The notes below the pieces were generated by a model, which did not search any database, had not been told where the DNA came from, and saw nothing but the letters and a program-made list of their open reading frames with translations. This document shows, piece after piece, positions 11 through 57,000 of a DNA stretch of 64,000 bases (position 1 is the stretch's first letter; each line of letters begins with the position of its first letter). The stretch is taken from positions 53,320,001 to 53,384,000 of the forward strand of contig CM097882.1 in the NCBI GenBank assembly GCA_044892505.1, written 5' to 3'. Source of the stretch: Schmidtea nova (Eukaryota). The position numbers and the translations under genes were made by a program.

Positions 11-14978
<14,968 letters not shown>

Positions 14979-30400: not shown

Positions 30401-31604
30401 ACTTAAAACAATCATGTCTTCTGCCCTCTCAAAATGCCAGGAACCGTTCATAGATGAGGTGAATAAATTTAAAGAAAGATTTGAAGCATTTATTACCAAG
30501 CCTCCAAAAAGCAGAAATCAATTATGGTCTTTCTTGAAAATAAATAAACAAGTTTTTATAACTAATCGGTTTCTTTTAAATTCCTTTATATTTTTGAACT
30601 ATGTACCAATCCTCATCCTCTAAGTTAAGAAATAAATTGGCAACTATCCAGCCATCCAAATTTGGTTAAGTGCCATATAAACTGCTGTCATAACGATGAA
30701 ATGAAGTCATTCATTTTTATTCTATATTAAATCAACGACAAATAAAAAATACCTCAAAAACAATCTATTTGATATAAATCGTATTAATTGAGACATTTTT
30801 ATAAAGTCCAACTTAAGTGGACACGACTGTATTATATTTAATTTCATCAATTTAAAATTCAAAAATAAACAAACAGTGATTATTAAAACACTGATATATT
30901 TAATGATATCATAACTATAATAATTAATAAAAAAATCTCGTTTTATATTTGTAGCATTTTACTATATTTTCAATGTCAATGGGGCTAATGTTAAAGTTGG
31001 ACAAGAATCACTAGATAATAAATAAATAATATTAATGGAGCATTTATTGTGATTAATTTGTAGACATTCAATTTAAAATTTTTATGACTTTTTAGAATAA
31101 CCAAAGTGTAAAATATTCTTATATACTTAACAACAGTTCATACCATTCTGTGGAATATAAAGCTGGTTTTGATGTGTATTCAGTAAAAGAATTCAACAGA
31201 AAAGAAAAGTTAATCAATTTACAAAATGATGTTGCTACAGAAACAAAGTGAAAATTTACCAATAAAATAATAAAATAATATTTTGTAGATTAAGCAGTCG
31301 CTTTTTGGGATATACTGTAGATGAGTTTGATTGCATAATTCCAGAAATTCAAATCCCTGAATTGGCTATGAACGACTGGTTAGCACTAGTTGATAAAGGA
31401 GCTTACACCGATGTGCATAACGAATTACCGACGATATTTTGTTCAACAACAGCAATTCCGCATTATTATTGCATAACGAAAAAACATTTATCTTCTCTGA
31501 AATCTATTATTAGACAACGCAGCACTAACAACGAGAAAGTTCTGAAAATGACCAACAGAAATGACCTTTTTGATTCAATATCTGATAACTGTTTGGTTAT
31601 GTAA
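21436..31604 (+). CDS. ODC1/AZIN-like: Ornithine decarboxylase / antizyme inhibitor family protein (PLP-dependent fold III), 497 aa, 7 exons
   Basis: Exons 21436-21573, 21621-21911, 21957-22189, 25613-25919, 25962-26018, 31096-31247, 31289-31604, all GT-AG with consistent phases (1494 nt). Motifs PFFAIKCM, GFDCASWDEI, LLLRI, KKFGA, VGVCFHVGSG, LDIGGGF, CEPGAYF, LGYTVDEFD, DWLALVDKGAYT. Confidence 0.92.
26579..29400 (-). mobile_element. Internally deleted Ty3/gypsy-like LTR element in ODC-like intron 5
   Basis: Decayed gag (WFLDTFTIKKSI...ERFGSFEIRV, similar to the gag at 57475-57960), knuckle remnant CYCWGESNHLRFQC, protease remnant LWDT*AAITV (~27890-27920), GPY/F-like remnant near 27700, PPT AGGGGAAATTGGTA, then 3' LTR 27208->26579 (TGTTCGG...CCCAACA, with AATAAA). 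No RT/RNase H/IN core and no 5' LTR seen. Confidence 0.75.
29666..30829 (+). mobile_element. Decayed pogo/Tigger-like (Tc1/mariner) DNA transposon in ODC-like intron 5
   Basis: TIR CAGTCCTGCCCACTT / AAGTGGACACGACTG with TA on both flanks (29664-65, 30830-31). Internal remnant SL*NKVKSRTIENSFCSMGF resembles the DDE_1 C-terminal AWxxVxxxTIxNCFxxxGF motif. Confidence 0.75.
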
Positions 31605-32546
31605 AATTTAAAAGTTTAAAATCTACTACCTTAACAATTTTTTATTAGAATAAATATTTTCATTTTAAATTTTTAAAACAACAAAGCTTATATTTGTTGG
31701 GCTGGTGTAATCAGAAACTAAAGTAGTATAGACATTAGGAAAAACAGAAAAAATAAATTATTTAATCCATAGACACATAATCTCGTAAAGTTAAAACAAA
31801 ACCAAATATAAATATTCTAAAAGTAACTAGAATAAACTATAACTATATAATTTTCAAAGTTATCTCTTGTGCACAAATAAATTGTTGATTACGCCTAAAG
31901 GCATTTCAACGATAATTCTTGTTTAATTTTAACAAAAAAGAATATTTATGTGTGTGTGTGTAATTGTAATTATATATGTAAATATGTGTATAAAAAACCA
32001 TCAATGAGATGTAAACGAATTATAATCAAATAAATTTGATTTAAAAATAAAATGAATTGCAAAGCAGTTTCGGCAAATAAATCAAATAAAATTAGATTAT
32101 CGAGAGAGGTGAGTGACATTGCGTTGAAATGTATTGTGATTGCCATCAACAATGATTATGCACCAAATTTCGTATGCATGACTGCACCCGTGTTCGTTGT
32201 TTTACACGTAGTGTCAACAGAAAAAAAAGAAAAACATGTGTGATAGATGATTGAGTTTCACGGTTCAGTAGTCAAAGTGAATGGTAAATGGATTGTTAAT
32301 AATTGTTACACAAAAATAGCCAAAGAATGTTTCTAAAAACAGAACATAAACATTTTTTGGAAAATACGTGCATGCAGTCTCGACAGAGTTGGCATGTGAG
32401 CATGCACGTATTGTCCGAGCGACTGGTGTTGGGGGTCAGTAAGATGAGAGAAAACCGACAGAAAAGCCGCCGCATACACTCACAGTTTTACTAACAGTTG
32501 TATAGAAATCCCGCATCAGTAGTGTACACACCGACGTCAAAAACAG

Positions 32547-32554
32547 TATATAAA
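32547..32554 (+). promoter_or_regulatory. TATA box of LTR-like copy A
   Basis: AAAAACAGTATATAAAGGC, conserved as AAAAATAGTATATATAGGC in copy C (~50338-50356, -) within homologous flanks. Confidence 0.55.
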
Positions 32555-33420
32555 GGCATTAGAAATTCATAATTTCAACACTCAGAAAGAACACTTATTC
32601 TGAAACCAAATATTTGCAGTGCACTTTGAGGGATTCAGGAGAGATTCCGCCAGCCAGCTCTGATCATGTATATATTTTTATTTTTTTTAGCGAGTAATTG
32701 GATGTCTTTTATAAATGCTTCGGAATTGTTGCTATAAATTTTGCGATATTATTATAATAATATGATCTTACTGTACTGTGTTTTAATGAGTTTATATAAT
32801 TTATAGATGTTTATGTGCTTCATGGGAGCTATATGCTACTAGGGTGCAAGTCTGAGGTCATGGTGCCCAGAGGTTCCACACCCGGTGAGAGAGTAGACGA
32901 TGTATAAAATTTAATAGATACAAAGGTTTCCTGTTGATGAAGTTGCACATGGGTCGAGAAAATAAAAAAGAAATAGGTAGAAGTTGCGATAAATGTACAG
33001 TGAATTCGAGGTCACCGAGGTTATTAGGCATATTAACCTGGGGCAGAGAGAAAACAAATTACTAAAGCGAGTATACAAATTTTAGATAAAATATATGTAA
33101 CCCAAGGGGAAAGTTCCTACACCCTACATGCACCGAAACACAAAGTGACAGTAGTACAGCAGCAAACCATATGGACAGATTTTCCGTCAGTGGTTCCAAG
33201 CGAGCGAGCTAAGGATCGAAGTGATAACAACGGGAAATTAGAGATAAATAAAGGCCATAACGTAATCGACTAAATTACCCTAAGATACAATTACTGATCA
33301 GTGATAAATTGCGGAAGTTGCGTTAGAAATATTTTGAATGCTACCTAATTATTAAATAGCAAATATTGATTAAATTTTCGACGAAATTGACATAAGTGGT
33401 AATAAAAATAGCAAGCGCAA

Positions 33421-33556
33421 GACCTTCTATCGGCAGAACGAACCAAAGGGGAAAATAAATGGGAGTAGTTTCGGTGACGGAGCTCACCTGCCCATCAATT
33501 TTCCACCACCGTATGCAGTACCAACTTGACTAGTAGGGAATAGTCAAGGGTATACG
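33421..33556 (+). ncRNA. Conserved structured RNA domain (copy A)
   Basis: Hairpins at 33459-33495 and 33510-33556 preserved with compensatory substitutions in copies at 41097-41232 (-) and 49654-49792 (-). Transcription not demonstrated. Confidence 0.65.
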
Positions 33557-34065
33557 CGTGTAGTAGTCATTTTATGCAAGGTTATGGGTGAGGGATCCCT
33601 AGAACACAACATTCAAATATTTACAAACCCACCCACAAACCAGCATATTGGAAATTGAATAAATAAATAAATACTTTTGAGTTCCTTACCAAAATTGTTT
33701 CACAATTAATTTCAGTGTGTGTTCTCCTACTCCGAACGATTTTCGAGCTAACTCGGTTAAATTATAAACATATTCGCAACTGTTTCTCTACTACCTTGAT
33801 ATCTATTTCTAAATTTTGTACATTAATTTTCTCTAAATCTCATTGTGATATAATTAATGAATTGATTAAATGCATTAATTAGATTTTAATGAGTACGTTG
33901 TTTAAATATTAAGATTTGCGAGAATTATTTAATTTAATAAAGTTTTGGAATTATTATTCTAATCTTATTTAATTCTTATTTATTTAATCGTTGGAATCGC
34001 ATAAAGGTATTATTATTATATTTTTAATCTGTTAGAGATTTCAGATGAAACCATAAAAATATATC

Positions 34066-35460
34066 ATGGCGTCACGAAATGAAAAAGAATACTTGCAGGA
34101 ATACTTATTTAAAGATAAGTTATCAAAATTGATTATATTCAAGAAGCGAGGAACCAGCGTTAAAATTGAAGATCATTTGATTCTCGTCAAAAGTTTTTTT
34201 GATCAGTTTGCCAAACACAACTTGGTAACGGAAGATGAAAAAATTAAAGTATTTTTAAAATACTTTGACGAAGAAATAGTAAAAGAGATCGAATGCTTAG
34301 GAGACATTAGCACAGCCAGAACCATAGACTGGTACGAAGAAAAGATTCTCAAAATCGTAGAAGTTAAAAAGTCAAAGACCTCAATAATTATAGATATCCT
34401 CGACGACACCAGACAGGAAAGAGATGAGACTGTGGTAGATTTTGCGAAAAGATTAAGAATGCAATGCCTAAGTTACGAAGGCGAAAAAGAAAAAATGATG
34501 AGACATGCCTTTATAGAAGGTGTGAGAAACCAAACTCTCTCGGAAGCCTTGAAGATCAGAGAGCCAAAAACGTTGGAAGAAGCTATAGAAGAGATTAAAA
34601 TGGAGCACGTGGGCGTAAAAGAAAAGGAAAACGAGTATAATAAAGTTAGGAAACTGGCTACAACGGACGAAGGGACAATAAATTTTTTAAAAAGAGAAAT
34701 TGACAGGTTGAACAAGATTATTGAAGAATTAAGGAAAGAAAAATTGAGAAAACCGAATAAAAATCAGAGAGAAGTAAGAGAAGACATTTCTTCCTATCAG
34801 CAAAAGGTTACATGTTTTAAATGTAACAAAGAAGGGTATATAGCGAGATTTTGCCTAAAAAAAGATGACATTGGAAACATTGATACAAGGACGTGCTATA
34901 AATGTGGAAAAATGGGACATATAGGAGCGAATTGCAGAATAGGTACAAATAGGATGAATGCGATTAAATGTTACGAATGTGGTGGTGGTCATTTGGCTAG
35001 ATATTGTGACAAGAGGAATAAATTCAGATATTTTCAAGAAGAAGATGAAGAGGAAGAAGAAGGTTCAGCGAGAGGATCAAAGACCGATTCTGAAGGTGAC
35101 AAGCATGTAAATACTATAACAGAAGTAAGGTTTACTAAAGGGACGAAGAAACCAAAGGAACATTTAGAAGAAAAATATGCAAATTATATAAACAGTCAAG
35201 GGGAAAAACCAAAAAAACAGTTAAATAAATACCAGTCTACAATTATCTCTAGTAGTAGACCGGAAAAAGCGCGGAATAAACCAATAACTGAATGTTACAT
35301 TGGACATCGAATGGTTAAAGTTATGTTTGATATGGGTGCAGATTTAAATGTTATTAGCCAGGAGTTGACAGATAAACTAATAAACGCAAATCCAACCATA
35401 AAGATGTTTAATTCAAAAACAAGAGTTACATGTGCTAATGGAAGCTCAATCGATGTGTAG
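34066..35460 (+). CDS. gag: Gag with three CCHC knuckles fused to aspartic protease (464 aa ORF)
   Basis: CFKCNKEGYIARFC (H->Y), CYKCGKMGHIGANC, CYECGGGHLARYC. Protease motif MFDMGADLNVI (D-T/S-G altered to D-M-G). Ends in a premature stop. Confidence 0.85.
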   Translation: MASRNEKEYLQEYLFKDKLSKLIIFKKRGTSVKIEDHLILVKSFFDQFAKHNLVTEDEKIKVFLKYFDEEIVKEIECLGDISTARTIDWYEEKILKIVEVKKSKTSIIIDILDDTRQERDETVVDFAKRLRMQCLSYEGEKEKMMRHAFIEGVRNQTLSEALKIREPKTLEEAIEEIKMEHVGVKEKENEYNKVRKLATTDEGTINFLKREIDRLNKIIEELRKEKLRKPNKNQREVREDISSYQQKVTCFKCNKEGYIARFCLKKDDIGNIDTRTCYKCGKMGHIGANCRIGTNRMNAIKCYECGGGHLARYCDKRNKFRYFQEEDEEEEEGSARGSKTDSEGDKHVNTITEVRFTKGTKKPKEHLEEKYANYINSQGEKPKKQLNKYQSTIISSSRPEKARNKPITECYIGHRMVKVMFDMGADLNVISQELTDKLINANPTIKMFNSKTRVTCANGSSIDV

Positions 35461-36162
35461 GTCAAATCCAGCTAAACATAGCAATAGGACCGATTGTGAC
35501 AAGTCACATATTTGACATTATGTCAAATATATTCCCACATGTTTATATCGGGATAAGAAGTATGAAGAAGTATGGAATCATCATTAATGCACCAGAAGAC
35601 TGCATAGAGATCCAAGGAATTAGATTGCCATTCTTATCAAAAACTATTCCAGCGGCTTCTTTAAACGAATCCCAACTGTATTAGAGAGTCGTAATAAGGT
35701 TGAAGGGAGAGACGAGACTTGGGGAGACGGTTATCAGGATTATTATAGAGTTATTGTATCAAGTAACGTACAGATGGAAACAGTCGGAGAGTATTTTATC
35801 AGAGGAATGGCAATAGATAAGGAGAACAAGAAATTAGAGAATCTTAATCAAAGTTGTGTGTTTAATGGTGAAAGAGTCAAAATGGCAGAGAGAGACATTT
35901 TGATAAGTGATTACGTGTTTAAAGTTGATGAAGGATATGTATTAGAAAAATCGATATGATGGAAGGTGGTATTAAACAGTTGCATGCAGGAACAACTTTA
36001 GGTTTTATAGAAAGATTTTACGATAAAACGGCAGAAAAGGCTACTATTGGAAGTATGTCATCATCAGAATAGCGAAGAGAAATCACGGCAGTCGATAAAA
36101 ATTTACGAAGTATAGAAGATTCTTTATATCGTACTATTAAATATAGCGAAAGAAAAGAGTTA

Positions 36163-38723
36163 ATGAAAACAATAGAAGAAATTAAGGATGTTTTTAGTAA
36201 ATATAAAATGGATATTGGGAAAATTACATCAGTACATCATAAAATTGACACTGGGAACGCCCGGCCAATTTCTTTTAAACCGAGAAAGGTACCATTAGGT
36301 CTGGAGGAAGAGGTTGACCACATGGTACAAGATTTATTAAGAGCTGGAATTGTGAGACCGAGCAAGTCAGCGTGGAATTTTCCGATTGTGGTTGTAAGAA
36401 AAAAGAATGGTGATATTAGAATGTGTGTCGATTATAGGGCAATGAACGCAAAGACGGCAAGACCAATTTTTCCAATACCAGCTAGGGAAGATCTTTTTGA
36501 TACACTTGGAGGAGCTTATGAACATGGTCTTGAGAAATGAAAATTGGATTAAGTGTGTCGTATACTTGGATGATGTTCTTATATTTGGGAGAACCATCAA
36601 AGAACATAATCAAAGATTGAGCGCTGTATTACGCCGAATTAAAGAGTCAGGACTGAAATTATCACCAGCTAAGTGTTCATTTTAAAAACATAAGTTAATT
36701 ATTTAGGACATGTCATCAATGAGAATGGGCTAAAAACTGACCCAGAGAAAATTGAAAGTATACGTTCATGGACAATGCCAACATGTAAAAAAGAATTGCA
36801 GACCTTCTTAGGATTTTGAAATTATTACCGTAGATTTATAAAAGATTATACAGCGACATCAGAAAAATTGAGTTCAGTGTTAAAGAGTGAAAATAATTTT
36901 GTGTGGAATGAAAATAGAAAAGGAGCATTTTACGAACTTAAAATCAGACTGTCAACACCGCCGGTGATGAAGGGGAATATATACCGCCAAATAATGAAGG
37001 GGAATATATACTGGACACGGACGCTTCGCACAATAGTATGGGAGCCGTTTTGTCACAGCGACAAAATGGAGAAGAACGAGTTTTGTGTTATGCATCAAAA
37101 ACCATGAGTAAGAGTCAGAGAAAATATTGTATAACAAGAAAAGAACTATTGGTAATATATACGTTTGTGCTGAAATTTAAGCATTATTTGATGGGGTCAA
37201 AGTCTTTAGTGAGAACGGACCACCAAGTGCTGAAATGGTTATTGAAATGGGATAATCCAAACACATCACAATACTGTGTTTGGAGAGCCGAACTAGAAGT
37301 CTACGACATGGTTGTCGAATATAGAAAGGGCGAAGAACACATAAACGCTGATGCGATGTCCAGGTTACCTCCATGTGAACAATGCTTACTTAAGCATAAA
37401 GAACCGATGAAGCGTCGAAACGTAAAAGTATACGATGAATTAATAGATGTTAAAAGGACAGAAAACGACGATCTAGAATCAGAGCGGGTTATGTGTGAAC
37501 TGAAAGTACATGAACATGATTGGGGACAAGACGAGGATGTCGACATACAAACCATAATTAAAAGGATGAAACGTTGAGATTCTCAAAATGACAGAAACGT
37601 AGAAGAGATAAGAAGAGGCAGCAGAGAATTACAAACAATATGGGCACACAGAAAAAATTAAGGATAAGGGGCGATCTACTTTATATCCAGGAGGATAACG
37701 AATACAGATTGATACTCCCAAAATTAAAGAGGAAGAAATTAATAATACAATTTCACAGTTTTCTAGGACATCCCGGAATTGAAAAAACTTATCGAATAAT
37801 AAGGAATGAATATTATTGGCCTAATATGGAGTCTGATATATCAGAAGTAATAGGAAAATGTCAAGAATGTGCACATAACAAAAACAGAAACGGTAGAATA
37901 AGGGCACCATTTCAAAGCATAATTGGAGAAAAACCATTTCAGATAATAGCAATCGACATAACAGGACCGTTCAAGACAACACAGAAAGGATTTAGGTATA
38001 TACTGGGTATAATCGATTACTTTTCGAAATATATAAGTTTAATATCAATGAGGAATATCGAGACAGAGAATATTGCAGAAGCGGTGTGGTCGCAGTGGAT
38101 TTCAAAGTTTGGAGCACCAGAACAAAATACACTCAGATTGTGGAAGTACTTTCCAATCAAGATTGTTTGCCGAATACTGTAAAATATTAGGAATTAGGAA
38201 GACAGTTACCTCACCTTACTACCCACAGAGTGATGAACTGGTAGAACGACTATTTGGAACTGCAAAAGGTATGATTGCAGCGATGTTAGAAGAGAAGAAG
38301 AGCAAAAACTGGAGTGTAGTATTGCCGGTAATAGAGTTCGGATTAAGAACTACAATACAAAAGTCAACGAATTATTCACCATATGAAATAGTATTTGGAA
38401 ATCAAGCAAGATTACTCATATCAGCAATAAAGGTTAATACAAGATATTTTCAAGACTATGACGATTACGTCCAACAGCTGCAACTAAATTTATCAGATAT
38501 TCACAAGAAAGTAACGGAAAATATGGAGAAAAAAAGAGAGTGCATCGCCGCAAGATATAATCAGAATCGATGGCACAAAAAATTGATAGTAGGAGATAAG
38601 GTAATGATAAAGAATGAAGACAGAAGGGGTTTCGAGAAGAAGTATATAGGGCCATTCATAATAGAAGAAATAATGGATAAATGGATCCATGTATTATATA
38701 GTGACAAAGCTAAAAAAGAATAA
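36163..38723 (+). pseudogene. pol: pol remnants (RT, RNase H, integrase) with frameshifts, stops and an RT deletion
   Basis: PSKSAWNFPIVVVRKK, RMCVDYR, YLDDVLIFG, DTDAS, LVRTDHQ, HHCC (H..GHPG..CQEC), IAIDITGPF, IHSDCGSTF, YIGPF. RT jumps from DTLGGA directly to LMNMVL, so the motif block in between is missing. Confidence 0.9.
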
Positions 38724-39714
38724 GAAGAAATTATAATCAAATAAAAGTAGTAAATGACGAGGGAGATTCCTGTAGAGTAAAGCCAACCAACACTAGTATT
38801 TGGTCAAAGAAACCGAAGACCAATTTAAAACCGATGAGAAGGTACCCATTACGGACGACGAGAAATCAGAAACCTAAGTACCGTTCGGTTGCCAGCGAGA
38901 GGGATGTGATATAATTAATGAATTGATTAAATGCATTAATTAGATTTTAATGAGTAAGTTGTTTAAATATTAAGAGTTGGGAGAATTATTTAATTTAATA
39001 AAGTTTTGGAATTATTATTCTTATCTTATTTAATTCTTATTTATTAAATCGTTGGAATCGCATAAAGGTATTATTATTATATTTTTAATCAGTTAGAGAT
39101 TTCAGATATAACCATAAAATATATAACACTCGTTCAATTACTATCTCTCCTCTCAAATTCTCTACTAACTCATTCCAATTTCTACCTTTGCACTCTAAAT
39201 TATTATATGCTTGTAAGGCATGCGCTTTTAAATATAATTGAATCCGTCGTTTTAACTCATATTGTGTCCATCCCCAGACATCAGCGTATTGAGCAATTTC
39301 ATCAAAAAAATCATCAAACTTCTAAGGTCATCCTTTAAAATGTTCTACAGGTAAAGTTTTTATCAATATTTTACGATTAATATTGTCAGCATCTCAATTC
39401 TGCCAAATATTATGAATGTTATCATTATTCTTATTAATTTTCGCCATTCTATATATTATTGGATTTCGCAAATTATAAATTATCTCTGGTTCTCTATCTA
39501 TTTTAATATTTTATTAATATTCAAATTTTAATTTTAAGTTATCGAAATAATGATTCTTTAAAATGTCCAATAATTTTATTGAAATAAATCCCAATATTAA
39601 TTAATATAATCCTCTGATTGCAATTTCTATCCCCAATCGATATTATTTTAATTTATATAATTTAATTTATATATTTTAATTTATATCAACTTGATGATCT
39701 TATATAAATAAATA

Positions 39715-40030: not shown

Positions 40031-40798
40031 ACCAAATTTGTTTTTAAACAAAAATTTTTCTATTTTTAAAAGTTCAAAATAACGACTAAAATTTTTAGTG
40101 TCATCCCGTGTCTCAGCATCCTTGAGGTTAAAAATGTAGTGCTCTATATGAAGTTGATACTTATACATCATTAATAATATTAATTTTTTCATAAATTATA
40201 TCTACCTACTATTATTTATTTTTTTGTTTTAATTAGTGTATATAATTTACTATTTGAAACAATAATATCGATGCTATTATTCGATTTTCTTCTTTAACTG
40301 ATCGGGTATGTTAAAAAGAAGAAAGAGGAAGATTTTTCAAAGATTCATATTGTTGTGAGAAGAATAACATATATCAGTAACAATATATCTTTTTAAATTG
40401 TAACTAAAATTCGTTCTATATAAAATCTCCGAAAAAATTATATTTATTATTTAGTCTATAATGCTTGGTGTACAAATTATCTACTACTACTACTTATTCT
40501 TATTCTTATTCTTATTATTCTTATTCTTATTCTTATTACACTTATAATTNNNNNNNNNNNNNNNNNNNNNNNNNNNNNNNNNNNNNNNNNNNNNNNNNNN
40601 NNNNNNNNNNNNNNNNNNNNNNNNNNNNNNNNNNNNNNNNNNNNNNNNNNNNNNNNNNNNNNNNNNNNNNNNNNNNNNNNNNNNNNNNNNNNNNNNNNNN
40701 NNNNNNNNNNNNNNNNNNNNNNNNNNNNNNNNNNNNNNNNNNNNNNNNNNNNNNNNNNNNNNNNNNNNNNNNNNNNNNACCTTTGATCTTTTTTTATT

Positions 40799-40998
40799 AT
40801 TATTATCAATAATTCTCATAATGACTATAGATCAAAATTTTTTTTTATAAACAATAACACAATATTTCGGCACAGCCTTTATCAAGTGTGTATTTCAAGT
40901 GAAATACACACTTGATAAAGGCTGTGCCGAAATATTGTGTTATTGTTTATAAAAAAAAATTTTGATCTATAGTCATTATGAGAATTATTGATAATAAT
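40799..40998. repeat. Perfect 200-bp palindrome (99-bp arms, 2-nt AG loop)
   Basis: 40799-40897 is the exact reverse complement of 40900-40998. Confidence 0.95.
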
Positions 40999-41096
40999 GT
41001 TGGGATTGTGGAGGGGTTGATAAAGGTGTACATGTACGTTGGATTCTTCTAGGGATTCTCCGTCCACAGCCCCACATAACTATTATCGTCGACACG

Positions 41097-41232
41097 CATA
41101 TGCCCTTGACTATTCCCTACTAGTCAAGTTGGTACTGCATACGGTGGTGGAAAAATGATGGGTAGGTGAGCTTTGTTGCCAAAACTACTCCCCATTTATC
41201 TTCCCTTGGGTCCTTGCTGCCGATAGAAGGTC
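41097..41232 (-). ncRNA. Conserved structured RNA domain (copy B)
   Basis: Same hairpin architecture as 33421-33556, with G-U/G-C exchanges in the outer stem. Confidence 0.65.
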
Positions 41233-41527
41233 TTACGTATTTACATTCTATGGATGTTCGTCCCCCAATGACTTCTGCGTTACGTGTCCTTATGATATAT
41301 CGTCTACTTTCTCTTAATGTTCGCATTTTTCTCTCCTTAGTCGCTCTACGAGCCTATGAAGCAATCGCTGCGAGGTAACGGTCGGTTGAGATTTTATGAC
41401 GAGATTTGTTATTTCTACGATTTAATTGGGTTGTTTATTTTATTAAGTAAAATCATACGATGAGAGATAACATTTACAAAACATTTTTATTTAAATGAAA
41501 ACATTTTATTTATTTATCGTCGATATG

Positions 41528-42114
41528 TCATTGTACGAATTCCAGCCGGATTTCCTGGATTAATTCCTCCTCTGTCAACGTATTAAGTTGGTCGATTTGC
41601 TCGTCCAGTCGTCTAGCGAATTCTCGACGACGACGACGTTGCCGCGATCCCATTCGGTGTTTTCGTTGCGGTGGACTGATCATGGGTGCAGGAATTGTTG
41701 GTTTAGGCCGGTTTTGGTGAGGAGTCGGCAAATCTTCTGCGACCAGGGCTGGAGCCACGAAAATTCTCTCTTCGTCTCGCAAGCGACGTCTTGGTAGGCA
41801 CTCTGAGTCCATCGTTGGGCTGTGATCGGTCGTATCAATGCTCGTAGCTCCGAATCGATGTAACTCTTGGTTACCGCATTCAAGCAGTTACGCAATTCTC
41901 TCTGAACTGCATCGAGCTCCATTTTGGTTTCGGCTAGTGCTTCCTGCACACGCTCCAATTTTTGTGATTGTTTCTTCATTTGGTCTGGTGAAAACCACCT
42001 CGCTTTCAATTCGTCGTTGGCTACCGTGAGCCGTTTGATTTGCCGTTGTTGATCTCTCAACTTCCGGTCTTGTATTTGATTTATCGCTTTCTTGGAGGTT
42101 TCCGTAGTGAACAT
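41528..42114 (-). pseudogene. Orphan ORF2: coiled-coil N-terminus plus Pro/Arg-rich C-terminus, one frameshift near 41810
   Basis: ATG at 42114. ORFs 41680-42114 and 41528-41812 overlap in adjacent frames. Intronless, visibly GC-richer than host exons. RKHRMGSRQRRRRREF motif. Confidence 0.5.
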
Positions 42115-42452
42115 GCTATCTAAACGTTACAATATTTAATTCACAAGTGATTCTATCGACAACATTATTCGAACGAAACGACTATTATTTTTAATGAATG
42201 AGTTGTATCCTAACGGTTTTAAATATAGTAGTTTCACAAAGGTTTATTTAACTGTTTCCTTACTGTTAAAAGAATTTTCCTAATGACGATAAATATTCTA
42301 ATGTACACGATTACAACGATAGATTTTGATTAAAAATGTTTCTAACTATAGTTCACCTCTACTACGGAACGAAATGAAACGCTAGATGGTACTAAACATT
42401 TATTACATTAAAATCGGTGATAACACAACATTGGGGATGAATTCGTCAATAA

Positions 42453-42978
42453 TCAATCTTCGGCCCTCTTCCCTCGATATGAGAATATCGAGCGGATTTG
42501 TAGGTTTGTGTTGATGTTCGTTGGGGTGGACTGAGCCTGTTGGAACCGAGCCTTCTCTGCTTCCCGAAGGGGTCGGATTGCAGTGTTAAAAATAAACCCC
42601 AATTCCTTGAACGTGGATGCCGGGATGTATCCCCAGTAGATAACACAATTCGGGAACCCTTGTTGATCCGACATTAAGATGAACCATTCGGCGTGCCATA
42701 GTTCGAATTCTTCCTCTGGGATGATCGGCCCAGTTGGCACAGCCTCGGTACCACACGTGATGACGTGGGTGGTCCCATACCGTAAAGGGACATGCTGTCT
42801 CCAACTCTCGGCGCCATGCCCACATTTTTTGGTGCATCTGTTGTAGGATTTCGAATGGAGCGGGTTTTAATGGGCTTATTCGGACCCGATTTCGACTCAG
42901 CGAACCCCGTTTCCAGCCCCACTGGTTCTCGTTTTTGATGGTCCTTCGTTTTCGGTAGGTTAAACTCTGCTTTGACAT
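42453..42978 (-). pseudogene. Orphan ORF1: Trp/Arg-rich protein, one probable frameshift near 42740
   Basis: ATG at 42978. ORFs 42586-42978 and 42453-42740 overlap. Intronless and GC-richer. No family recognised. Confidence 0.45.
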
Positions 42979-45149
42979 TTCTCTATAATGATTATAACTT
43001 TATAATAGTTAATAGATTGATTCATAGGTTAATTATGGTAGATATGATCTCTCATCGTACTGATTATATTATTTGTCTCCCCTTTTAGGCCCTGACCTGA
43101 ATATGTGAGAAAAACTATTCATCTTAGTGATATATGTTACCCTCATGTCGGCTGAGGTCTACCTATTACGGTGGGATTTACAGTGAACCTTTTAATAAAA
43201 ATTCGATTGGTAAGTAATTTGTGTTGATAACGACAACATTGTTGTGAAAAAACTCCTTCTCGTTGTGCCCCTCTTAGTTGTCACAAATCACCCCTTTTTG
43301 AGTACAAAGTGGTTGAAATAATCTCTCAGGGTTTGTTGGGTGTCCCATGTGCAAATTCTGTTCAGAAGAAAAAAAAATCATATTTTGTTATTTATTACTT
43401 TACCGTGTGTGGAGCCCTCGAGCACCACGCCACGGACTGACACCTTGGGAACCTAAAGCTCCCAGTCAGCGCACTGAATTTAATATATCAAAATATTGTA
43501 TCATATTAATAATTAGTCATAACAAAATTTATAACAATCAAAGATTTAATAATTTATAACATAAAATGAAAACATAGCAAAAAAACATAGCAAAAAAACA
43601 TAGCAAAATCATAGACAATACATATAACAATGAATAAAAATTTACCGAGTATTTCTGAAAAATTGAACCGGTCGGTCAAAGTGAAATTCGCGCAAATTGA
43701 TCAGTTAAATTCGGTAATATTATAACAGTCTGAAGTCTAAAAGCTCTGTCAGTCTAGTGTAAATTAAATTCTGTTAGCTCAAATTAGTCTCAACTTTAGT
43801 CTGAACTTAGTCTTAGTCTAATTCTAGTGAATTCTGGTTTTATGTAAAATCTGATCAGTATTTATACTGATCAGTCGGGTCTAGACTGACCAATCAGGTT
43901 TGGCCAATTTCATGGTGGGTTTGATTATTATTTTGTTGATCCAATTAATTTTTATTTTTTAGATGGGATTCTTTCTCGGTGGTCTGGTTTTAAAAACAAT
44001 TATTCAATGAAAAGTACTATTATTTTGTTTTAATCATTTATATTTTATTTATTTTAGGTGTCCCTTGGGCCATTTATTGGTTACATTATTGCTAATTCAT
44101 TTATTTTTATCTATAATCTATTTCTTAATTTGTTTCTATTTTATCTAAATTGTTTTGTTCTCTAAAATTACTGTTTCTCCTTTTTTTCTTATATTTTCTA
44201 TTTTTCTTTTAATTATTATATGTTTATTTTACTTTTTCCTNNNNNNNNNNNNNNNNNNNNNNNNNNNNNNNNNNNNNNNNNNNNNNNNNNNNNNNNNNNN
44301 NNNNNNNNNNNNNNNNNNNNNNNNNNNNNNNNNNNNNNNNNNNNNNNNNNNNNNNNNNNNNNNNNNNNNNNNNNNNNNNNNNNNNNNCTGTTAACTTGCA
44401 ATATCGTTGTTTAAATAAGGTATGTAATTATATTTGCACACCATCAACCTTATTAGCTTTTGATATACATAATTTTAAATATTTTGAGCCTTGTTTGTTA
44501 TGACCATGAAAAAACCTTTTCAATTATATATAATTTGTTTGAAAAAATTTGAACTTTTTTTTGTTTCAAAATTTTATTTTTCAATCACACACCTTCAAAA
44601 ATAAGACCACAGTGTGCAGTTCACAAAGGCCTTTCGAATGATACCAATTTTTACCTTGGTACGTTAAATTTTTAACATTATGTTATTTTATTTTGAAATG
44701 AGTCATCGATTAAGTCATAAAATTCAAATTTGAAATTAGACATCAATGCATCATAGGACGAATCATCGATGTATCATAACGTTGAGTCTTGAAAATGATG
44801 AGTTATCGATGAGTAATCAATTAAAACTATTTAAAAATATAAAAATTAAAAAAAACATTTTAATCAGTCATAAGTGAGTCATCAATGAGTCAGACAATCA
44901 AAAATTTTTTAAAAATAATCAAAATTAAAAATAATTTTCGAGTCATCGATGCGTCATAAAATAATGTAGAAAATAATAGATTAAAAAAAGGTTTAAAAAA
45001 GGTAAAAAAGGGTGAAAAAAGATTGAAAATTTTTTTGACCCCCTATCTCCGCTAAAAACCCCCAGAGGGGGTATGTCTTTGTTAAAAAATATTTTGCGCC
45101 CACGCATGTCTTTGTTCTTGGCTCCACACATCTACCTACTACCGTTCTT

Positions 45150-48912: not shown

Positions 48913-49568
48913 TTGAGATTTATTGAATAAAAAAAGACGTTAAATGTGAAACCAAAAATCAAGCATCATAATTATATTTATTTAAACAATACACCAACAG
49001 TCTGTAATTAAGGGTCACAAAAACATTTATTACAAGTAGTTTGTGAGTAATAGCTATTTATTATAAGTTTTTAAACATATTTTAAAGCTATTTTAGCATA
49101 TTTTATATTTATTTAATATNNNNNNNNNNNNNNNNNNNNNNNNNNNNNNNNNNNNNNNNNNNNNNNNNNNNNNNNNNNNNNNNNNNNNNNNNNNNNNNNN
49201 NNNNNNNNNNNNNNNNNNNNNNNNNNNNNNNNNNNNNNNNNNNNNNNNNNNNNNNNNNNNNNNNNNNNNNNNNNNNNNNNNNNNNNNNNNNNNNNNNNNN
49301 NNNNNNNACTGAAAATATATATACGGAAAAAAGTAAGTCATTATAAATTTTATTTGTAATAATTGTGTTCCTTTTTCTTCTGATATGTTTTATGGCTCTT
49401 TTCCCTGTTATAAGAAGTCCGATTTTCCCCTTCGACACTATGTTTCAGATACCTTTAGGTTCAAAACCCATTTAACGGTCAAGGTCTTAATAATCTTTAC
49501 CCCGTTCCACTATTTCAATCAATAACATTTTGCCATGGTTTGTATATCTATGAAAATTTAAGTGTTGA

Positions 49569-50945
49569 TGTTATGGGTTGTTATGAAATTTATTATTATT
49601 CAATAGGGATTATTGCGACTCACACCCTATTATAAAATGTCAACTACCTCGCTCGTATACCCATAGTTACTCCTTAACTAACTATTTTGATACTGTACAC
49701 AGTGGCGAGAATCTAATGAACAGGTGAGCTTCGCTACCAAAACTACTCCTCACTATATTATCTCTTTCGGTACCTGCTGCCGATAGAAGGACTCACCCGG
49801 CTTTACGGTCCTGTCACATGATTTAATTCTTATTTTTCTATCACTTTATTCTATCTTAGGTCTACGCTTGCTCACTCTCAAAAATATACCAATAACCCCC
49901 CTCCCCCTTAACCTCCTCTGGGTTCCTTTACAATTATGTCCTAAGCTACTTTTACAAATCGTCCAAATTTCATAATCAAAAAATTTTAGTTTGTTCTCAC
50001 CACGCTCGCGGAACTCCAAAGAATCCCTAACAGTGTGGCTATCACCCTCATGGCATTACGCCACGAGGACGCATCTATTTATTTTATGAGCAGAGTTTTA
50101 ATAGGTAATCATGATAATAACAAAATGCATTTTCAAATATTTATTAACGAACAAATTGATAATTCCTATCATAATACTTTCAAAACCAGTTAAATAACAA
50201 AGCATAAAACTTAAGTATCAGATTTCTTTACTGAACAAATTCAATCAACTCTGGTGTTGGCTGGTGGAATCAAATTAAACAAAATTATCTGTCCACAAAT
50301 TTTTAGTTTTAAAAAATGTTTTGGTATGATATTTCAACGCCTATATATACTATTTTTGAGTGGCTGTGTGTCTAGTACCGATACGTGTTTGTTACATAAA
50401 TGTTAGCAAAACTGTAGTTGTATGTGTCGAATTTTCACTCAATTTTCTATCCCTTTACCGACTCCCAACACCAGTCACTCGGACACTACATGTAAGCTCG
50501 TATATTGACTCTGTCGAGACTACATGAACGTATTTTCCAAAATATTTTTCTTTTACTATTTTTAATACACATTTCTATCATCATTAAATGTTCACTAAAC
50601 CAGCTAGTGGTAAGTCTAAAAATTTTAAATAATTATCAATCACAAATCACGTGGCCACCCATCGATTCTCTCATTTTCACACGGTGAAAAACCAACAAAA
50701 CCAAACCACCACCAATTAACTCATGTCAACTGTCGATGAATTGCGAATTGTGACAACGCAAATTCAGAGTCACGTAAATTCAATTCAATTTCATTTATTT
50801 ATTTATAAAAATTGTTTTATTTTATCTTTAATTCAAGTTTGTTTACAAAATTTTGTTAATTCTATTTATTTTCAAAATTTATTTTTCTTAACTGTACTAA
50901 ATTATGTGTCTATTAATAATTTATTTTCTCTGTTTTTCGATTCCA
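49569..50945 (-). mobile_element. LTR-like non-coding element copy C
   Basis: Collinear homology to copy A: GAAAAACAG..AAATAAATTATT..TAGACACATAAT, GTCTCGACAGAGT...TGTCCGAGYGACTGGTGTTGGG, TATA block, GATTCCRCCAGCCA, structured block. Ends CCCATAACA. The 5' end is replaced by the 310-bp array. Confidence 0.7.
49654..49792 (-). ncRNA. Conserved structured RNA domain (copy C, most diverged)
   Basis: Stem ATAGTTA/TAACTAT replaces TTGACTA/TAGTCAA of copies A and B at the same position. Confidence 0.65.
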
Positions 50946-52079
50946 CCTTTGGTGTATAAATCTTCTGTATTTCTAAAAATATTTTTTTAATATAAATGTA
51001 TATTTCTCCTCTTCTAAAATGTCTTTATAAATAATTTCACTTATATTTGTCTATGTATTTGTATTTTCTATTATAGGATTTTTGTGTTTTTTGAGATAAT
51101 TTGCTTTTCTCTTCTATAGTATAGGCCCGTAATTTATTACTTTGCTTTTAGTTTTTGTTCTTTTCTGCACTAGTTGTGTATATTTGTTTTATGTATAATT
51201 TAGATTGTTATTATAGATACATTAATTGTTGCCTGCTTGGCTCTTAATTTATGTCCTTTGGTGTATAAATCTTCTGTATTTCTAAAAATATTTTTTTAAT
51301 ATAAATGTATATTTCTCCTCTTCTAAAAATGTCTTTATAAATAATTTCACTTATATTTGTCTATGTATTTGTATTTTCTATTATAGGATTTTTGTGTTTT
51401 TTGAGATAATTTGCTTTTCTCTTCTATAGTATAGGCCCGTAATTTATTACTTTGATTTTAGTTTTTGTTCTTTTCTGCACTAGTTGTGTATATTTGTTTT
51501 ATGTATAATTTAGATTGTTATTATAGATACATTAATTGTTGCCTGCCTGGCTCTTAATTTATGTCCTTTGTGTTTTTTGAGATAATTTGCTTTTCTCTTC
51601 TATAGTATTACTTTGCTTTTAGTTTTTGTTCTTTTCTGCACTAGTTGTGTATATTTGTTTTATGTATAATTTAGATTGTTATTATAGATACATTAATTGT
51701 TGCCTGCCTGGCTCTTAATTTATGTCCTTTGGTGTATAAATCTTCTGAATTTCTAAAAATATTTTTTTAATATAAATGGATATTTCTCCTAGATCCTCTC
51801 CTATAAATGGCATAGTTTATTCCGACGAAACTTCTAAAATGTCTTTATAAATAATTTCACTTATATTTGTATTTTCTATTATAGGATTTTTGTGTTTTTT
51901 GAGATAATTTGCTTTTCTCTTCTATAGTATAGGCCTGTAATTTATTACTTTGCTTTTAGGTTTTGTTCTTTTCTGCACTAGTTGTGTATATTTGTTTTAT
52001 GTATAATTTAGATTGTTATTATAGATACATTAATTGTTGCCTGCCTGGCTCTTAATTTATGTCCTTTGGTGTATAAATC
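50946..52079. repeat. Tandem array, ~310-bp unit, ~4 units
   Basis: Unit start CCTTTG recurs at ~50946, 51255, 51565, 51726 and 52063 (spacings 309, 310, 161, 337). Confidence 0.95.
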
Positions 52080-52102: not shown

Positions 52103-53743
52103 TTATTTTTTATATTGAAAATCCGCGACTAGCGCTAAATGGTCACTGGGGAAATCTTTATTTGGAAGAGCTTGTTCACGCGTAACTTCCTCTAATGATG
52201 GCAACGGCACAGTACTCTTACACAACAGGTCGTTAGAGCTGTAAAATATATAATCTAGTTCTCCTGAGAAATCCAGAACGTAGTTAGTGAACGGACTATT
52301 ATAAGCTGATCTCAACAATAAATCATGATTCAAATACAAGCTTAACTCTTCTCCATCTGGCAATAAATGCTCCACAGCAACAGATCCGTTGAGCACTAGA
52401 TTGATCGTGTCACTATTCCGGAAATCATTAAAATCGCCAATCAAAACGACTTTAGCTTCGGGATATTTGCGCTTTATTGAACTGATTTGAAAAAGAATTG
52501 CTGCCACTTGAATATATCTAATAATATCAGCGGACGGTTTGAAATACAAATGGGTATTCAAAACGATCAATTGGTGATCAGCGGCCTGGAGAACACAGCC
52601 AGCAACGCACTGCTTAAGTTTGATCCAATTCTGGAGCAACGGAGAGGATTTCCTAATAAAATTCACGATTTCCCCAAAGCCCTCCAAGTGGCCACTGTTC
52701 AAAACTAATTTCGAAATCGACTCCACGCAGACATTTTCAACGAGTTCAAATTTCGATTTTCTCCACAAAATAGCCTGGCCTTCCATCGACAGTAAATCTT
52801 TCGTTTGAAACAGCCCATCGAAATAGTTACTGGCAAAGAACGGGTAGAGAAAATGTCGATAGATGTGCGATTCGACTTCCTGCAGGCAGATGATGTCGCA
52901 ATGATAATTGGATATTTCTTTTATCAGCAAATCTTTTCGGTAATCCGCATTTAAATACTCATCGGGACAGTGGCGAAATGTTTGTCTGCCGACTTCGGTT
53001 TCTGAGTAGATGCTTGCCAGTAAATTATAACTCAATATTCTGAACTCATTTTGTTCATTGTTATAATCACAAGTGTGATTCCATCGATTTTTAAGTGCAA
53101 TTTGTGACGGGCCTATTTGGATAGGGGTTGTTGATATGTTTTCAAAGACAATAAGCTCATTAAAACAAGAAGATTTTAATTTTAAAAAATGACTATTGTA
53201 ATTTTCTTTGAGTAAAACAGCGAAACCAGAATCGACTTTTTTCCAATCGCGTTTATTTAACGATACAAACCACTGGAAGCTTATATCGGATAATTCGCCC
53301 TGTTCCATGTCAATTTGCGGGAAAACAAAGGTATCTGTCAACAAGATTTTCGGTAATTTTATTGAGATAATCAATGGTACATTTAAAACAACCCTATAAT
53401 CAATTTTATTTATTTTCACAATTGTGTGCTCAATTAAAACATCTTTCAGTGACATGTTTAAAATATTTTCATCGAATATATGCTTTTCATTGATTATCGT
53501 GACATCATTTACTAATATTTCGGGATTTTCTTTGGATTCTAGTAATAATTTTTGTTTCTTTTTTCTTGATATCTTTTTTTCTAGCACATTATTGATTTTA
53601 AACTTAAATCGATTGATAAAATTAGACAAATCTTCCGTTTGGGAACGCAAGAATGAGAAATTTTCCTTAAAAAGCGAATGATAATTATAAACAAAGTCTA
53701 TCCTCATTTTGTCTGGCATTGATTTAGGAAATCTGATGTACAT
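52103..53743 (-). CDS. PDE12: 2',5'-phosphodiesterase 12 (CCR4/nocturin/angel EEP-family deadenylase), single coding exon, ~546 aa
   Basis: SYNLLA, DIICLQEV, EGQAILWR, NTHLYFKP..DIIRYIQ, GDFN, FTNYVLDFSGELDYIFY and PSDHLALVADF motifs, plus a long PDE12-like N-terminal region. First ATG at 53743. The frame is open to an AG acceptor at 53815, so the true start may lie upstream. Confidence 0.88.
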   Translation of the reverse strand: MYIRFPKSMPDKMRIDFVYNYHSLFKENFSFLRSQTEDLSNFINRFKFKINNVLEKKISRKKKQKLLLESKENPEILVNDVTIINEKHIFDENILNMSLKDVLIEHTIVKINKIDYRVVLNVPLIISIKLPKILLTDTFVFPQIDMEQGELSDISFQWFVSLNKRDWKKVDSGFAVLLKENYNSHFLKLKSSCFNELIVFENISTTPIQIGPSQIALKNRWNHTCDYNNEQNEFRILSYNLLASIYSETEVGRQTFRHCPDEYLNADYRKDLLIKEISNYHCDIICLQEVESHIYRHFLYPFFASNYFDGLFQTKDLLSMEGQAILWRKSKFELVENVCVESISKLVLNSGHLEGFGEIVNFIRKSSPLLQNWIKLKQCVAGCVLQAADHQLIVLNTHLYFKPSADIIRYIQVAAILFQISSIKRKYPEAKVVLIGDFNDFRNSDTINLVLNGSVAVEHLLPDGEELSLYLNHDLLLRSAYNSPFTNYVLDFSGELDYIFYSSNDLLCKSTVPLPSLEEVTREQALPNKDFPSDHLALVADFQYKK

Positions 53744-54050
53744 CAGACAGATAAAACGTTTTACATAAACAGTTCGCAAAGTCCCACTGATAAATAGTCT
53801 AATGTGACTGGCAATCTAAAATATAAAAATAGCTTTAAAGTAAATTACTATGCAGTGAATTACGCAATATTTATTACAATTTATAAAGATTATTGATTTA
53901 TTTTATATTTAAAAATGATTAGAAAAGAGTTTTAGTTTAATTAATAGCCCTATCAAATTTTTTATAAAATGCATTTAATCATATTTTTTTAAATTTTGCT
54001 TTCGATAAATGTGTGAATATTTAAACAAAATACGAATAGTGGTTAATCCA

Positions 54051-57000
54051 TGTATGATTAAGAATTATTAAATATACAGGGTTTCTCATTTTATAGAGTA
54101 ACTATCTTAATATCAGACATCAAGAATAATAATATTTATTTCAAAAACAACTCGTTCTCGTTGATTATTTAAACAACATAGTTTTTTAATAATCATTACA
54201 TTACTTTCCCCTCCTCAACTTTGATGCCATCTCTTCAGCCATTCTATCTGTCTCGGTCGTGTAGCATCCGGAAATTGTAGCTCGACCTGGTGTTCCGACA
54301 AAAATCTAACAATCTTATATGGTCCATCGTATTGCATGTCATTCTTATTTCTTCTGCGTGGCTCCCGTCGGACCAATACTTCCTCCCCCACTTCAAAAGA
54401 ACGTTTACCTCTTCGATCTTTTTCTAAAATTCTCATTCTATCCGCCGCTAACTTAGCATTCTGAACCACTTTCTCGTCAACTCTTTGGCCTTTGATCTCT
54501 GATCATTGTCCATTGGTATGAAGTGACACCTTCCGTCCATACACAATCTCAAATGGAGAATATTTAGTTGCGCTTTGAAATGTCGCATTGATGCTGAATT
54601 CCACCCTTGGAAGTATCTCGCACCATTCATATCGCCTGTTGTTACTAAGAATTGAAGTCACCAGTAGATCTCTCATCGTGCGAATTACTCTTTCTACCAA
54701 TCCATTTGATTGATGTTGATATGGTGCTGAGAATTCTTGACGAATCCCTAAAACTTCGAATTTCTCTTTCATATATCTGCCTTCAAAATTTTTCCCTCTG
54801 TCTGAAAGAATACTTTCTGGCTTTCCATATTTATAAATCCAATTATGAAGTATAATCCGGAATATCGTCATTTCGTCTTGTTCTCTGTCGCAGTTAGGCA
54901 TACTAATTTACTGAACCGATCTATTATGACAACCACATATCTCTTTCCGGACCTTGTCTTTTCCATGTGTGCTACATCAACTACGATTTGTTCCAGAAAC
55001 CCGTTACTTCCGCGCGGAATAAGAAGTTCTTTCGTTCTTCCTTGATCTATTTTCCTTCTCGCACATATACTACATTCCTTTACAACGTGTCTTACTATTT
55101 CTTACATCTTTGGCCAGAAAAAACTATTTTCCATGTAATGAAAGACTTTTTTCCCCCCACATGGCATAATTCTTCATGAATCTTCTTAACCAGTTGTTTT
55201 TTATGGCTCCCTGGAACTCCTACTAAATCATTGGATTCTCTCTCTGCGATAATTAGGTCATCGTTGATCTTCAATCTGTCTTTGTGCGCATATAGGAAAG
55301 ATTTCTTGAAAAAATCCTCTTCCTCATTCAAAAATTCATTGATATAATTCCATGCTCCTTGAAAACCCTTGTCCTTCTTTTGTTCTTCCATAATTTTCAT
55401 CATGGTGCCAGTTTTTTGTATCGAATTAATATATCGTACCCTAGCTCTCTCCTTCTTCGGCTCTTCGTGTTGTGTTTGACATTGTGCGCACAACATTCCT
55501 CCAATTCTCTACAATTCATCGGCATTCCCATGTTCTACTCCTTTCCGATACTGCAATTTAAAATTATATTCTGATAAGTTCACCATCCATGTTTGGAATT
55601 GTGGACTTATCGCTTTCTTTGTCGTATTCATAAATACAAGTGCCTTGTGGTCGGTTCTCGCTATGAACTCCTTCCCATATAAGTATTGACGAAAATAAGT
55701 AACATACTCATGTAATGCCAGTAATTCCTTTCTGGTCACACAATACCCTTTTTCGTGTGATGTAAGGTGTCTCGACCCATACACAATTACTACTTCTTTA
55801 CCTTCCTCTGTGATTTGACTCAGAACGGCACCTACCGCTTCAAAACAAGCATCCGTATCTAAGACAAATACCCCGTCCATCCTAGGATAATCCAGTATTG
55901 GTGTTTTCATCAGGGCTTCTTTTAAATTCTCGAAACTTGTTTCACATTTTTGAGACCATTGTAAAGTCTTATCACACCCTGTTGTTGCTGCATATAGTGG
56001 AGCTGCCAGACGCGCATAATCTTTGACAAATCTTCGATAATAATTCGTCAGTCCCAAAAATGAGCGCAGTTGTTTCGCACATTTTGGTCTTGTAGCTTCC
56101 TTAATCACCAATATCTTTTCTTCGTTAGTTTGAATACCGAACTCACTCACGGCATGCCCTAAAAATATTAACTTATCCTTGTAGATCTTACATTTCTGCG
56201 AATTTATCTTCACGCCAGTACCTCCGATTCTTTCAAAAACTTCTTTTAGCCGGCTGTCATGTTCCGATTTATCCTTCCCGAATATGAGGATGTCATCTAA
56301 ATATACCACCGCCCCATTAAAAAGAATACCTTCTAACATAGTATTCATGAATCTCTGAAATGTAGCTGGAGCTGTTTTCTATCCGAACGGTAATCGCTCA
56401 AAACAGAACTGCCCGCTTTTCGTACTAAACGCGGTTTTCTCCCGTGACTCTGCTGCCAATGATACTTGATAATATGCTTGACCCAGATCCAATGATGAGA
56501 AAAACTTCGCTCCGGCCAAGCAATCCAGTAGCTGTGTGATATTCGGCATCGGAAAAGATTCTTTCTCTGTCAGACTATTTAGACTCCGATAATCCGCACA
56601 CATTCTGATCGATCCGTCTTTTTTCCCCATTTTGACTAATGGTGCGTTCCATGGACTCAGTTTCTTCATTCATCACTGATATTGATGCCCCCGAATCCCA
56701 TAACATTTCTACTTCAACCGTATTAACAACCATCTTATTCCATTCTCTTCCATCGCTCGTCTGATACTTCATGCTTCTTCTCCTGTCATTTCGATTTTCT
56801 TCATATATATCTGCGATCCCATTGACGAAATGTGTGCGATGGGATCATTGGCATTTTGTCTTACTTCTACTTCATGTGGTTGACACTTACTTCCGTATTC
56901 ATCTCTAAAATCATAACTAAAATCATAAATATTGATGCCCCCGAATCCCATAACATTTCTACTTCAACCGTATTAACAACCATCTTATTCCATTCTCTTC

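Follow-up and report, generated by a model that had tools for sequence, protein, structure and literature searches.

Long solo LTRs in the Schmidtea nova genome point to giant Burro-like gypsy elements and a probable gag-only satellite family

Within a 64,000-nucleotide stretch of the Schmidtea nova genome (GCA_044892505.1, contig CM097882.1, positions 53,320,001 to 53,384,000 of the forward strand; hereafter the window, numbered from its first letter) lie three very long, diverged units with the look of LTRs, copies A, B, and C, and the question raised by this locus is what such units are and how they came to be there. Copy A (31695..33645, forward strand) is 1951 bp long, starts with TGTTGGG, ends with CCAGCA and is adjoined on its left (31691..31694) and on its right (33646..33649) by the 4-bp target duplication TATT, all of which can be read directly and agrees with the first-pass annotation of the window. 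That annotation had left two readings side by side, unusually long solo LTRs or a self-contained element or RNA gene family. The first has stood, together with the 4-bp integrase-type duplication and the view of the conserved islands as cis signals, but the second has not, as the units are also found in pairs, as the two LTRs of elements with a primer site and gag or gag-pol between them. We consider it highly probable that copies A, B, and C are solo LTRs of Ty3/gypsy elements of one lineage, in which a gag-only family is trans-mobilised by giant autonomous elements.

Remnants of gag, RT, RH, and IN (34057-38723) begin about 400 bp downstream of copy A on the same strand, and copy A could be imagined as the 5′ LTR of this gag-pol region. 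This is hardly conceivable, however, as the gag-pol has 223-bp LTRs, a primer site and a 5-bp duplication of its own, and copy A is closed by TATT. The region (33844-39128, forward strand) is a separate, ordinary gypsy element of 5.3 kb with gag and a broken pol, whose LTRs (33844-34066 and 38905-39128) are 95.5% identical and whose duplication reads CTCAT/CTCGT, with one mismatch; it is unrelated to copy A. A second decayed gypsy gag-pol lies at 54503-57942 on the reverse strand, and a frame with a weak match to the ornithine decarboxylase family (31266-31604, forward strand; E 0.009) ends 90 bp before copy A in the same orientation.

The 19-nt start motif of these LTRs occurs 717 times in the genome, and the first 100 occurrences listed include 17 pairs spaced 10-15 kb apart on the same strand and none on opposite strands. 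Nine pairs were examined. In eight of them, the two members are LTRs of 1.43-1.74 kb with 99.6-100% identity, the target duplication is exact over 4 bp, and all eight share one primer site and one motif ahead of the 3′ LTR; in the remaining pair, the two members have the upstream flank in common as well, and this is a duplication of flanking DNA and not an LTR pair. The primer site is 18 nt long, is complementary to the 3′ end (plus CCA) of the tRNA-Pro(UGG) of this genome, the pattern of which has 1,105 genome-wide matches, and starts 6 nt after the LTR in whole elements; the usual gap between LTR and primer site is 0-3 nt. No primer site lies 3′ of copy A, and a search which placed the site at a gap of 0-5 nt found only the flank of copy A itself. 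By exact match, the LTR-primer junction is present in at least 509 copies and is common to the gag-only elements and the giants, and the 3′ junctions number at least 130 of gag-only type and at least 462 of giant type. Before the 3′ LTR, a conserved G-rich, self-complementary motif stands instead of a pure purine run. In all whole elements (e.g., L047:1990-2024 and L083:3830-3863), a conserved pair of short palindromes takes the place of a pure purine tract at this position. The tRNA-Pro(UGG) genes form a large tandem array with a 308-bp period at G000:C1:459.6 Mb (L097).

When the 3′ end of copy A is compared with the genome, the 30 best matches all stop at one hexamer and then, with a single exception, run into unrelated DNA; 29 of them have no primer site after the end and one does. 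The flanks of 15 solos with both ends readable were compared, namely copy A, nine of the 30 loci and five of 13 single loci, those left out being duplicates or having no detectable end. The duplication is exact in all four bases in 9/15 and matches in at least three of four in 14/15, whereas shuffled pairing of the flanks gave a mean of 1.0 exact matches and none of 5000 shuffles reached nine. The TATT around copy A, for which coincidence had at first been allowed, is thus no chance repeat; three of the nine exact duplications are located in AAT microsatellites. It might be argued from the 29 matches without a primer site, and from several LTR mosaics which are met mostly as solos, that A-type units also move alone as single-LTR, TRIM- or SINE-like RNAs, some solos then being independent insertions. 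However, a lone LTR has neither a primer site nor a plus-strand primer, the solos share their 4-bp duplication with the whole elements and near-identical paired versions exist, and we regard such movement as very unlikely. Recombination between LTRs, a process taken from established LTR biology, would instead have left copies A, B, and probably C as solos.

Similarity to the paired LTRs of L101/L100 and to the solo LTR L004 assigns copy A, as a solo LTR, to the non-autonomous family that has only gag. L101 and L100, the two best matches to its 5′ part, are an LTR pair 98.9% identical to each other, with an ATAT 4-bp duplication, a tRNA-Pro primer site with one mismatch and gag inside. Identity to these paired LTRs is 92.6% over positions 1-1315 of copy A and 82% over positions 1565-1908, and identity to L004 is 93.5% over positions 634-1951; copy A is a mosaic of two LTR subfamilies. 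No paired element with its exact full 1951-bp layout was found, and the sole primer-bearing element with its 3′ two-thirds (L079) has a deleted interior. The spacers between the islands had been thought to vary freely, but each of the three units aligns collinearly with an LTR subfamily of its own, present in multiple copies.

The gag-only elements are about 13-14 kb long and have paired LTRs, a primer site and gag, with no enzymes seen. Their interior contains tandem repeats and a single ORF, about 1,000 codons long, whose product has zinc knuckles and a retrotransposon gag domain. The family has at least 127 gag copies; all 127 scored are at least 90% identical, and the longest frame does not exceed 1035 aa. 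A PR-RT-RH-IN query had no match in four gag-only elements (0/4), and no pol was present in the ORF lists of the other four. The capsid region is conserved, with nonsynonymous/synonymous ratios of 0-0.22 in four comparisons, and the rest of gag gives 0.17-0.86 on few changes; a comparison of gag between these elements and the giants gives 49-55% identity. The zinc knuckles of the gag-only protein (P0001) number seven, a set of three that is duplicated and one more, unlike in the giants, which match a single set. In L100, the gag of a gag-only element is interrupted by a stretch with the LTR ORFs of a giant. Elements with near-identical gag have at least two unrelated U3/promoter types, as well as mosaic LTRs (L042-L061, L004, L022), thus suggesting that LTR modules have been swapped.

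The autonomous partner was met by sampling 20 primer sites, picked mostly where the gag-only start motif is absent; at 16 of these, the site is followed by a very long gag ORF that is 43-50% identical to the gag-only protein. The four giants followed to their 3′ LTR are 28-30 kb in length, with LTRs of 3.1-3.3 kb that are 99.9-100% identical and 4-bp duplications in all four. The polyprotein region spans about 15-17 kb, or ~5,100-5,700 codons by coordinates, and in the stretches scanned against Pfam its domains follow the order gag with CCHC knuckles, fusion glycoprotein (PF24664), protease, RT, RNase H, integrase, and ankyrin; by Pfam, accessory ORFs encode RING upstream and TRAF/MATH downstream of this region. 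BIR, BCL2-like, ubiquitin-like, and dUTPase-like motifs gave no Pfam or PDB sequence match in the giants; several of these motifs were found in Burro only by HHpred, according to an excerpt of its description (PMC6431247). A gag query among longer proteins had no match, which is weak evidence on kinship to the reference elements (Burro-1 to -4, GYPSM1). The giants are Ty3/gypsy elements with a Burro-like architecture, the likeness being one of description (size and domains).

Copy B (40998..44240, reverse strand) is a decayed solo LTR of an autonomous giant of the E1 type, 70-87% identical to the E1 LTR over positions 20-440, 767-913, 1283-1403, and 1434-3260. It had been given an end at 43480 but reaches to at least 44240, this part being 78% identical to positions 20-440 of the giant's LTR; its 5′-most bases are unreadable, and its target duplication cannot therefore be read. 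The extra sequence which had been taken for cargo is the native ORF pair of the giant's LTR, along which copy B aligns. Copy C (49563..50945, reverse strand) is an older LTR of gag-only type, with 75% identity to L046 in the promoter block and 83% to L058 in the 3′ domain, and alignment places its 3′ end at 49563 and not at 49569. At the 5′ end, where copy C borders on a tandem repeat, the TG is missing; its duplication is not readable, so that it may be a truncated LTR instead of a clean solo LTR. The tandem repeat (50946-52079) has units of about 310 bp, and a palindromic MITE-like repeat (40779-41001), with a second copy at 4981-5154, lies beside the 3′ end of copy B. Copy C also lies about 1.1 kb downstream of, and in the same orientation as, an intronless 570-codon endonuclease/exonuclease/phosphatase gene (52103-53815, reverse strand), which we take to be PDE12-like. 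The genome contains one paralogue of this gene, at 35%, and otherwise only weak partial matches, and the idea that the gene sits inside a giant whose 3′ LTR would be copy C was rejected on these grounds.

The islands said to be common to the three units are so in part: in a self-BLAST of the window, the 3′ domain recurs in all three (A versus B, 88% over 147 bp; A versus C, 72% over 162 bp), but the upstream block is found in A and C only (76% over 241 bp). In copy A, this block (GTCTCGACAGAGT ... TGTCCGAGCGACTGGTGTTGG; 32373..32431, forward strand), recognised by copy comparison, may be a promoter element in the U3 of one type of gag-only LTR. It is present in A, C, L046, L004, and L101 and absent from copy B and from the four autonomous LTRs checked, among which no element with the promoter block of copy A was found. 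The GTCTCGAC/TGTCCGA block, also first credited to all three units, belongs to A and C alone, and their type of promoter combines the GTCTCGAC block with TATATAAA; a TATA-like box at 32547..32554 (forward strand) may serve it in copy A. The promoter of copy B differs, with a CTGATTGG box and CAGTATAAATAC near 43858-43868, in the part of the unit beyond 43480, and in the giants the CTGATTGG box is found in three of four and a TATAAATA box near position 380-400 in all four. The donor-like GT motifs described at the outset are indeed present in A, B, and C. In copy A, the GC-rich leader cassette between an AG and this GT (32807..32886, forward strand) is a candidate small exon or hairpin. The AG...GT layout is seen in five LTRs (A, B, C, L046, and L022) but not in E1, which has no AG, or in E3, which has no such donor, and this distribution makes splicing plausible. 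Folding of the cassette gives z scores of -3.4 to -4.2 in B, C, and L022 and +0.5 in A. Four contig sets over the 5′ LTR of a giant have even coverage and no GT..AG among 15 joints listed of 37, and are uninformative on splicing.

The structured 3′ RNA domain (33416..33561, forward strand), defined by alignment and folding, contains a bulged, purine-rich stem with a hairpin at 33467-33484 whose loop is GNRA, as well as another long hairpin, and is kept by both families next to the primer site. Its presence in all three units was borne out, with both-sided changes at pairs and the GNRA loop retained. The domain of copy A is 78-93% identical to those of gag-only LTRs and 73-89% to those of three autonomous LTRs (88% to E1, 73% to E3), and that of E4 aligns in the multiple alignment only; besides a 100-bp leader match in one type pair, it is the sole BLAST block between gag-only and giant LTRs. 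Among 14 diverse copies, two stems have both-sided changes at several pairs (a raw count over related copies). A GNRA hairpin loop is seen in 13 of the 14 and accounts for 21 of the 22 loops read from a 28-sequence set. The G-U pairs favour the forward strand, and folding z scores are -3.6 in A, -2.7 in B, and -0.7 in C. No Rfam covariance model matched the domain, and hammerhead, twister, pistol, and HDV-like cores did not fit in a by-eye comparison from recall.

The LTR of the giants contains two ORFs of about 160-210 (ORF1) and 190-200 codons (ORF2), both found in 13 of the 19 loci scanned and 19-44% identical between lineages. The dN/dS ratio is 0.12-0.25 in 18/19 pairs for ORF1 and 0.05-0.16 in 14/22 pairs for ORF2, the remainder being saturated and the pairs not independent; both ORFs are under purifying selection. 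In copy B, each survives as a remnant in two frames on the reverse strand, ORF1 at 42456..42993 (tblastn, 79 and 46% to E1 ORF1) and ORF2 at 41534..42120 (81 and 64% to E1 ORF2). Neither ORF had homologues in the libraries searched, ORF2 giving only sub-0.9 Atlas leads, and the predicted model of ORF1 has a pLDDT of 41. To our knowledge, two selected orphan genes within an LTR are unusual for a retrotransposon.

The ORF2 remnant of copy B runs from a coiled-coil-like part through an Arg-rich to a Leu-rich part, and in 12/12 aligned copies, at 27-96% identity, a Leu-rich tail comes after a stretch rich in Arg/Lys. Besides retroviral Rev, the known export systems for unspliced RNA include Rex, Rec, and LTR-borne response elements. 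The giant could thus be a complex retrovirus-like element, in which ORF2 would be a Rev/Rec-like export protein made from spliced RNA and the 3′ domain its response element, the gag-only family keeping the domain and using the protein in trans. Such an addition to our reading would fit the layout and low dN/dS of ORF2, the bulged purine-rich stem shared by both families and the AG which, by eye, lies a few bases 5′ of the first ATG in most accessory ORFs, but we think it rather unlikely. No homologue or structure ties ORF2 to Rev, Arg-rich stretches are common nuclear signals, an AG before an ATG is a weak sign in AT-rich DNA, and packaging, priming or polyadenylation would explain equally well a domain that adjoins the primer site. 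A precedent is provided by CERV, which, in the excerpted account, is needed for export of the RNA of the Caenorhabditis elegans element Cer1 (PMC10309623). The likeness to CERV/Cer1 and Rev/RRE, an accessory protein which, with a structured RNA, might export unspliced RNA, is one of motif resemblance alone, with no sequence or structure similarity seen for ORF2 or the 3′ domain. A literature search on Rev-like gypsy proteins found no description of this family.

The reading which we prefer is still that of solo LTRs from a helper and its dependants. As gypsy elements, the giants would prime their replication with tRNA-Pro and insert by means of an integrase that makes a 4-bp stagger, and copy B would descend from these 28-30 kb autonomous Burro-like elements; copies A and C would descend from a 13-14 kb gag-only deletion derivative, copied with the giant's RT and integrase in the manner of trans-mobilisation familiar from LTR biology. 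The borrowed integrase first proposed would hold for the gag-only parents of A and C but not for the unit alone. The derivative would have kept the ends, the primer site, the motif before the LTR and the 3′ RNA domain, and the CCAGCA end, which adjoins the tRNA-Pro primer site, would serve as the integrase attachment end. The islands may then be the cis signals which both families need: a type-specific promoter, the leader cassette and the 3′ folded domain.

Solo LTRs, Burro giants and gag-retaining non-autonomous elements are all already known. The giants resemble Burro/GYPSM1, giant gypsy elements known from planarians, as far as excerpts of its description go, in giant size, long polyprotein, gag with CCHC knuckles, an env-like fusion domain before PR-RT-RH-IN, ankyrin, MATH/TRAF, and accessory ORFs, with a total of over 30 kb in Burro against 28-30 kb here, LTRs of 3.1-3.3 kb included; unlike in Burro, TRAF/MATH is here a separate downstream ORF (PMC6431247). 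The same excerpts make no mention of LTR ORFs or of a gag-only derivative (PMC6431247). Our literature search likewise found neither LTR-encoded Burro ORFs nor a gag-only or non-autonomous Burro derivative, but the original description may already show LTR ORFs or short derivatives. The "semi-autonomous" TR-GAG elements of plants, in the part of the literature consulted (PMC13570524), share with the gag-only family paired LTRs, a primer site, a target duplication and a gag ORF without enzymes; the family here differs in its animal host, its size of 13-14 kb, a gag of about 1,000 codons with duplicated zinc knuckles and a partner found in the same genome. The ta-TRIM elements of cestodes are likewise a non-autonomous LTR family of flatworms with many solo LTRs, but, by the excerpt available (PMC4558846), are small miniature elements, whereas the present family is large and keeps gag.

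Copy A itself is ordinary debris, and the value of the locus lies in the pair of helper and satellite to which it leads. We put forward only tentatively, and regard as doubtful when taken whole, the picture of Burro-like giants whose LTR encodes two orphan proteins, one of them a Rev-like export factor acting on an RNA element of the same LTR, and of a young gag-only family which has dropped these proteins, swapped promoters, kept the RNA element and lives, in an animal host, as the satellite of a helper that bears env. The pair would show that some cis signals are indispensable to a giant gypsy element, namely the 3′ RNA domain, the primer site and the end motifs, and that the promoter is a signal which such elements can swap. 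If ORF2 is an RNA export factor, it would represent a further independent Rev-like solution.
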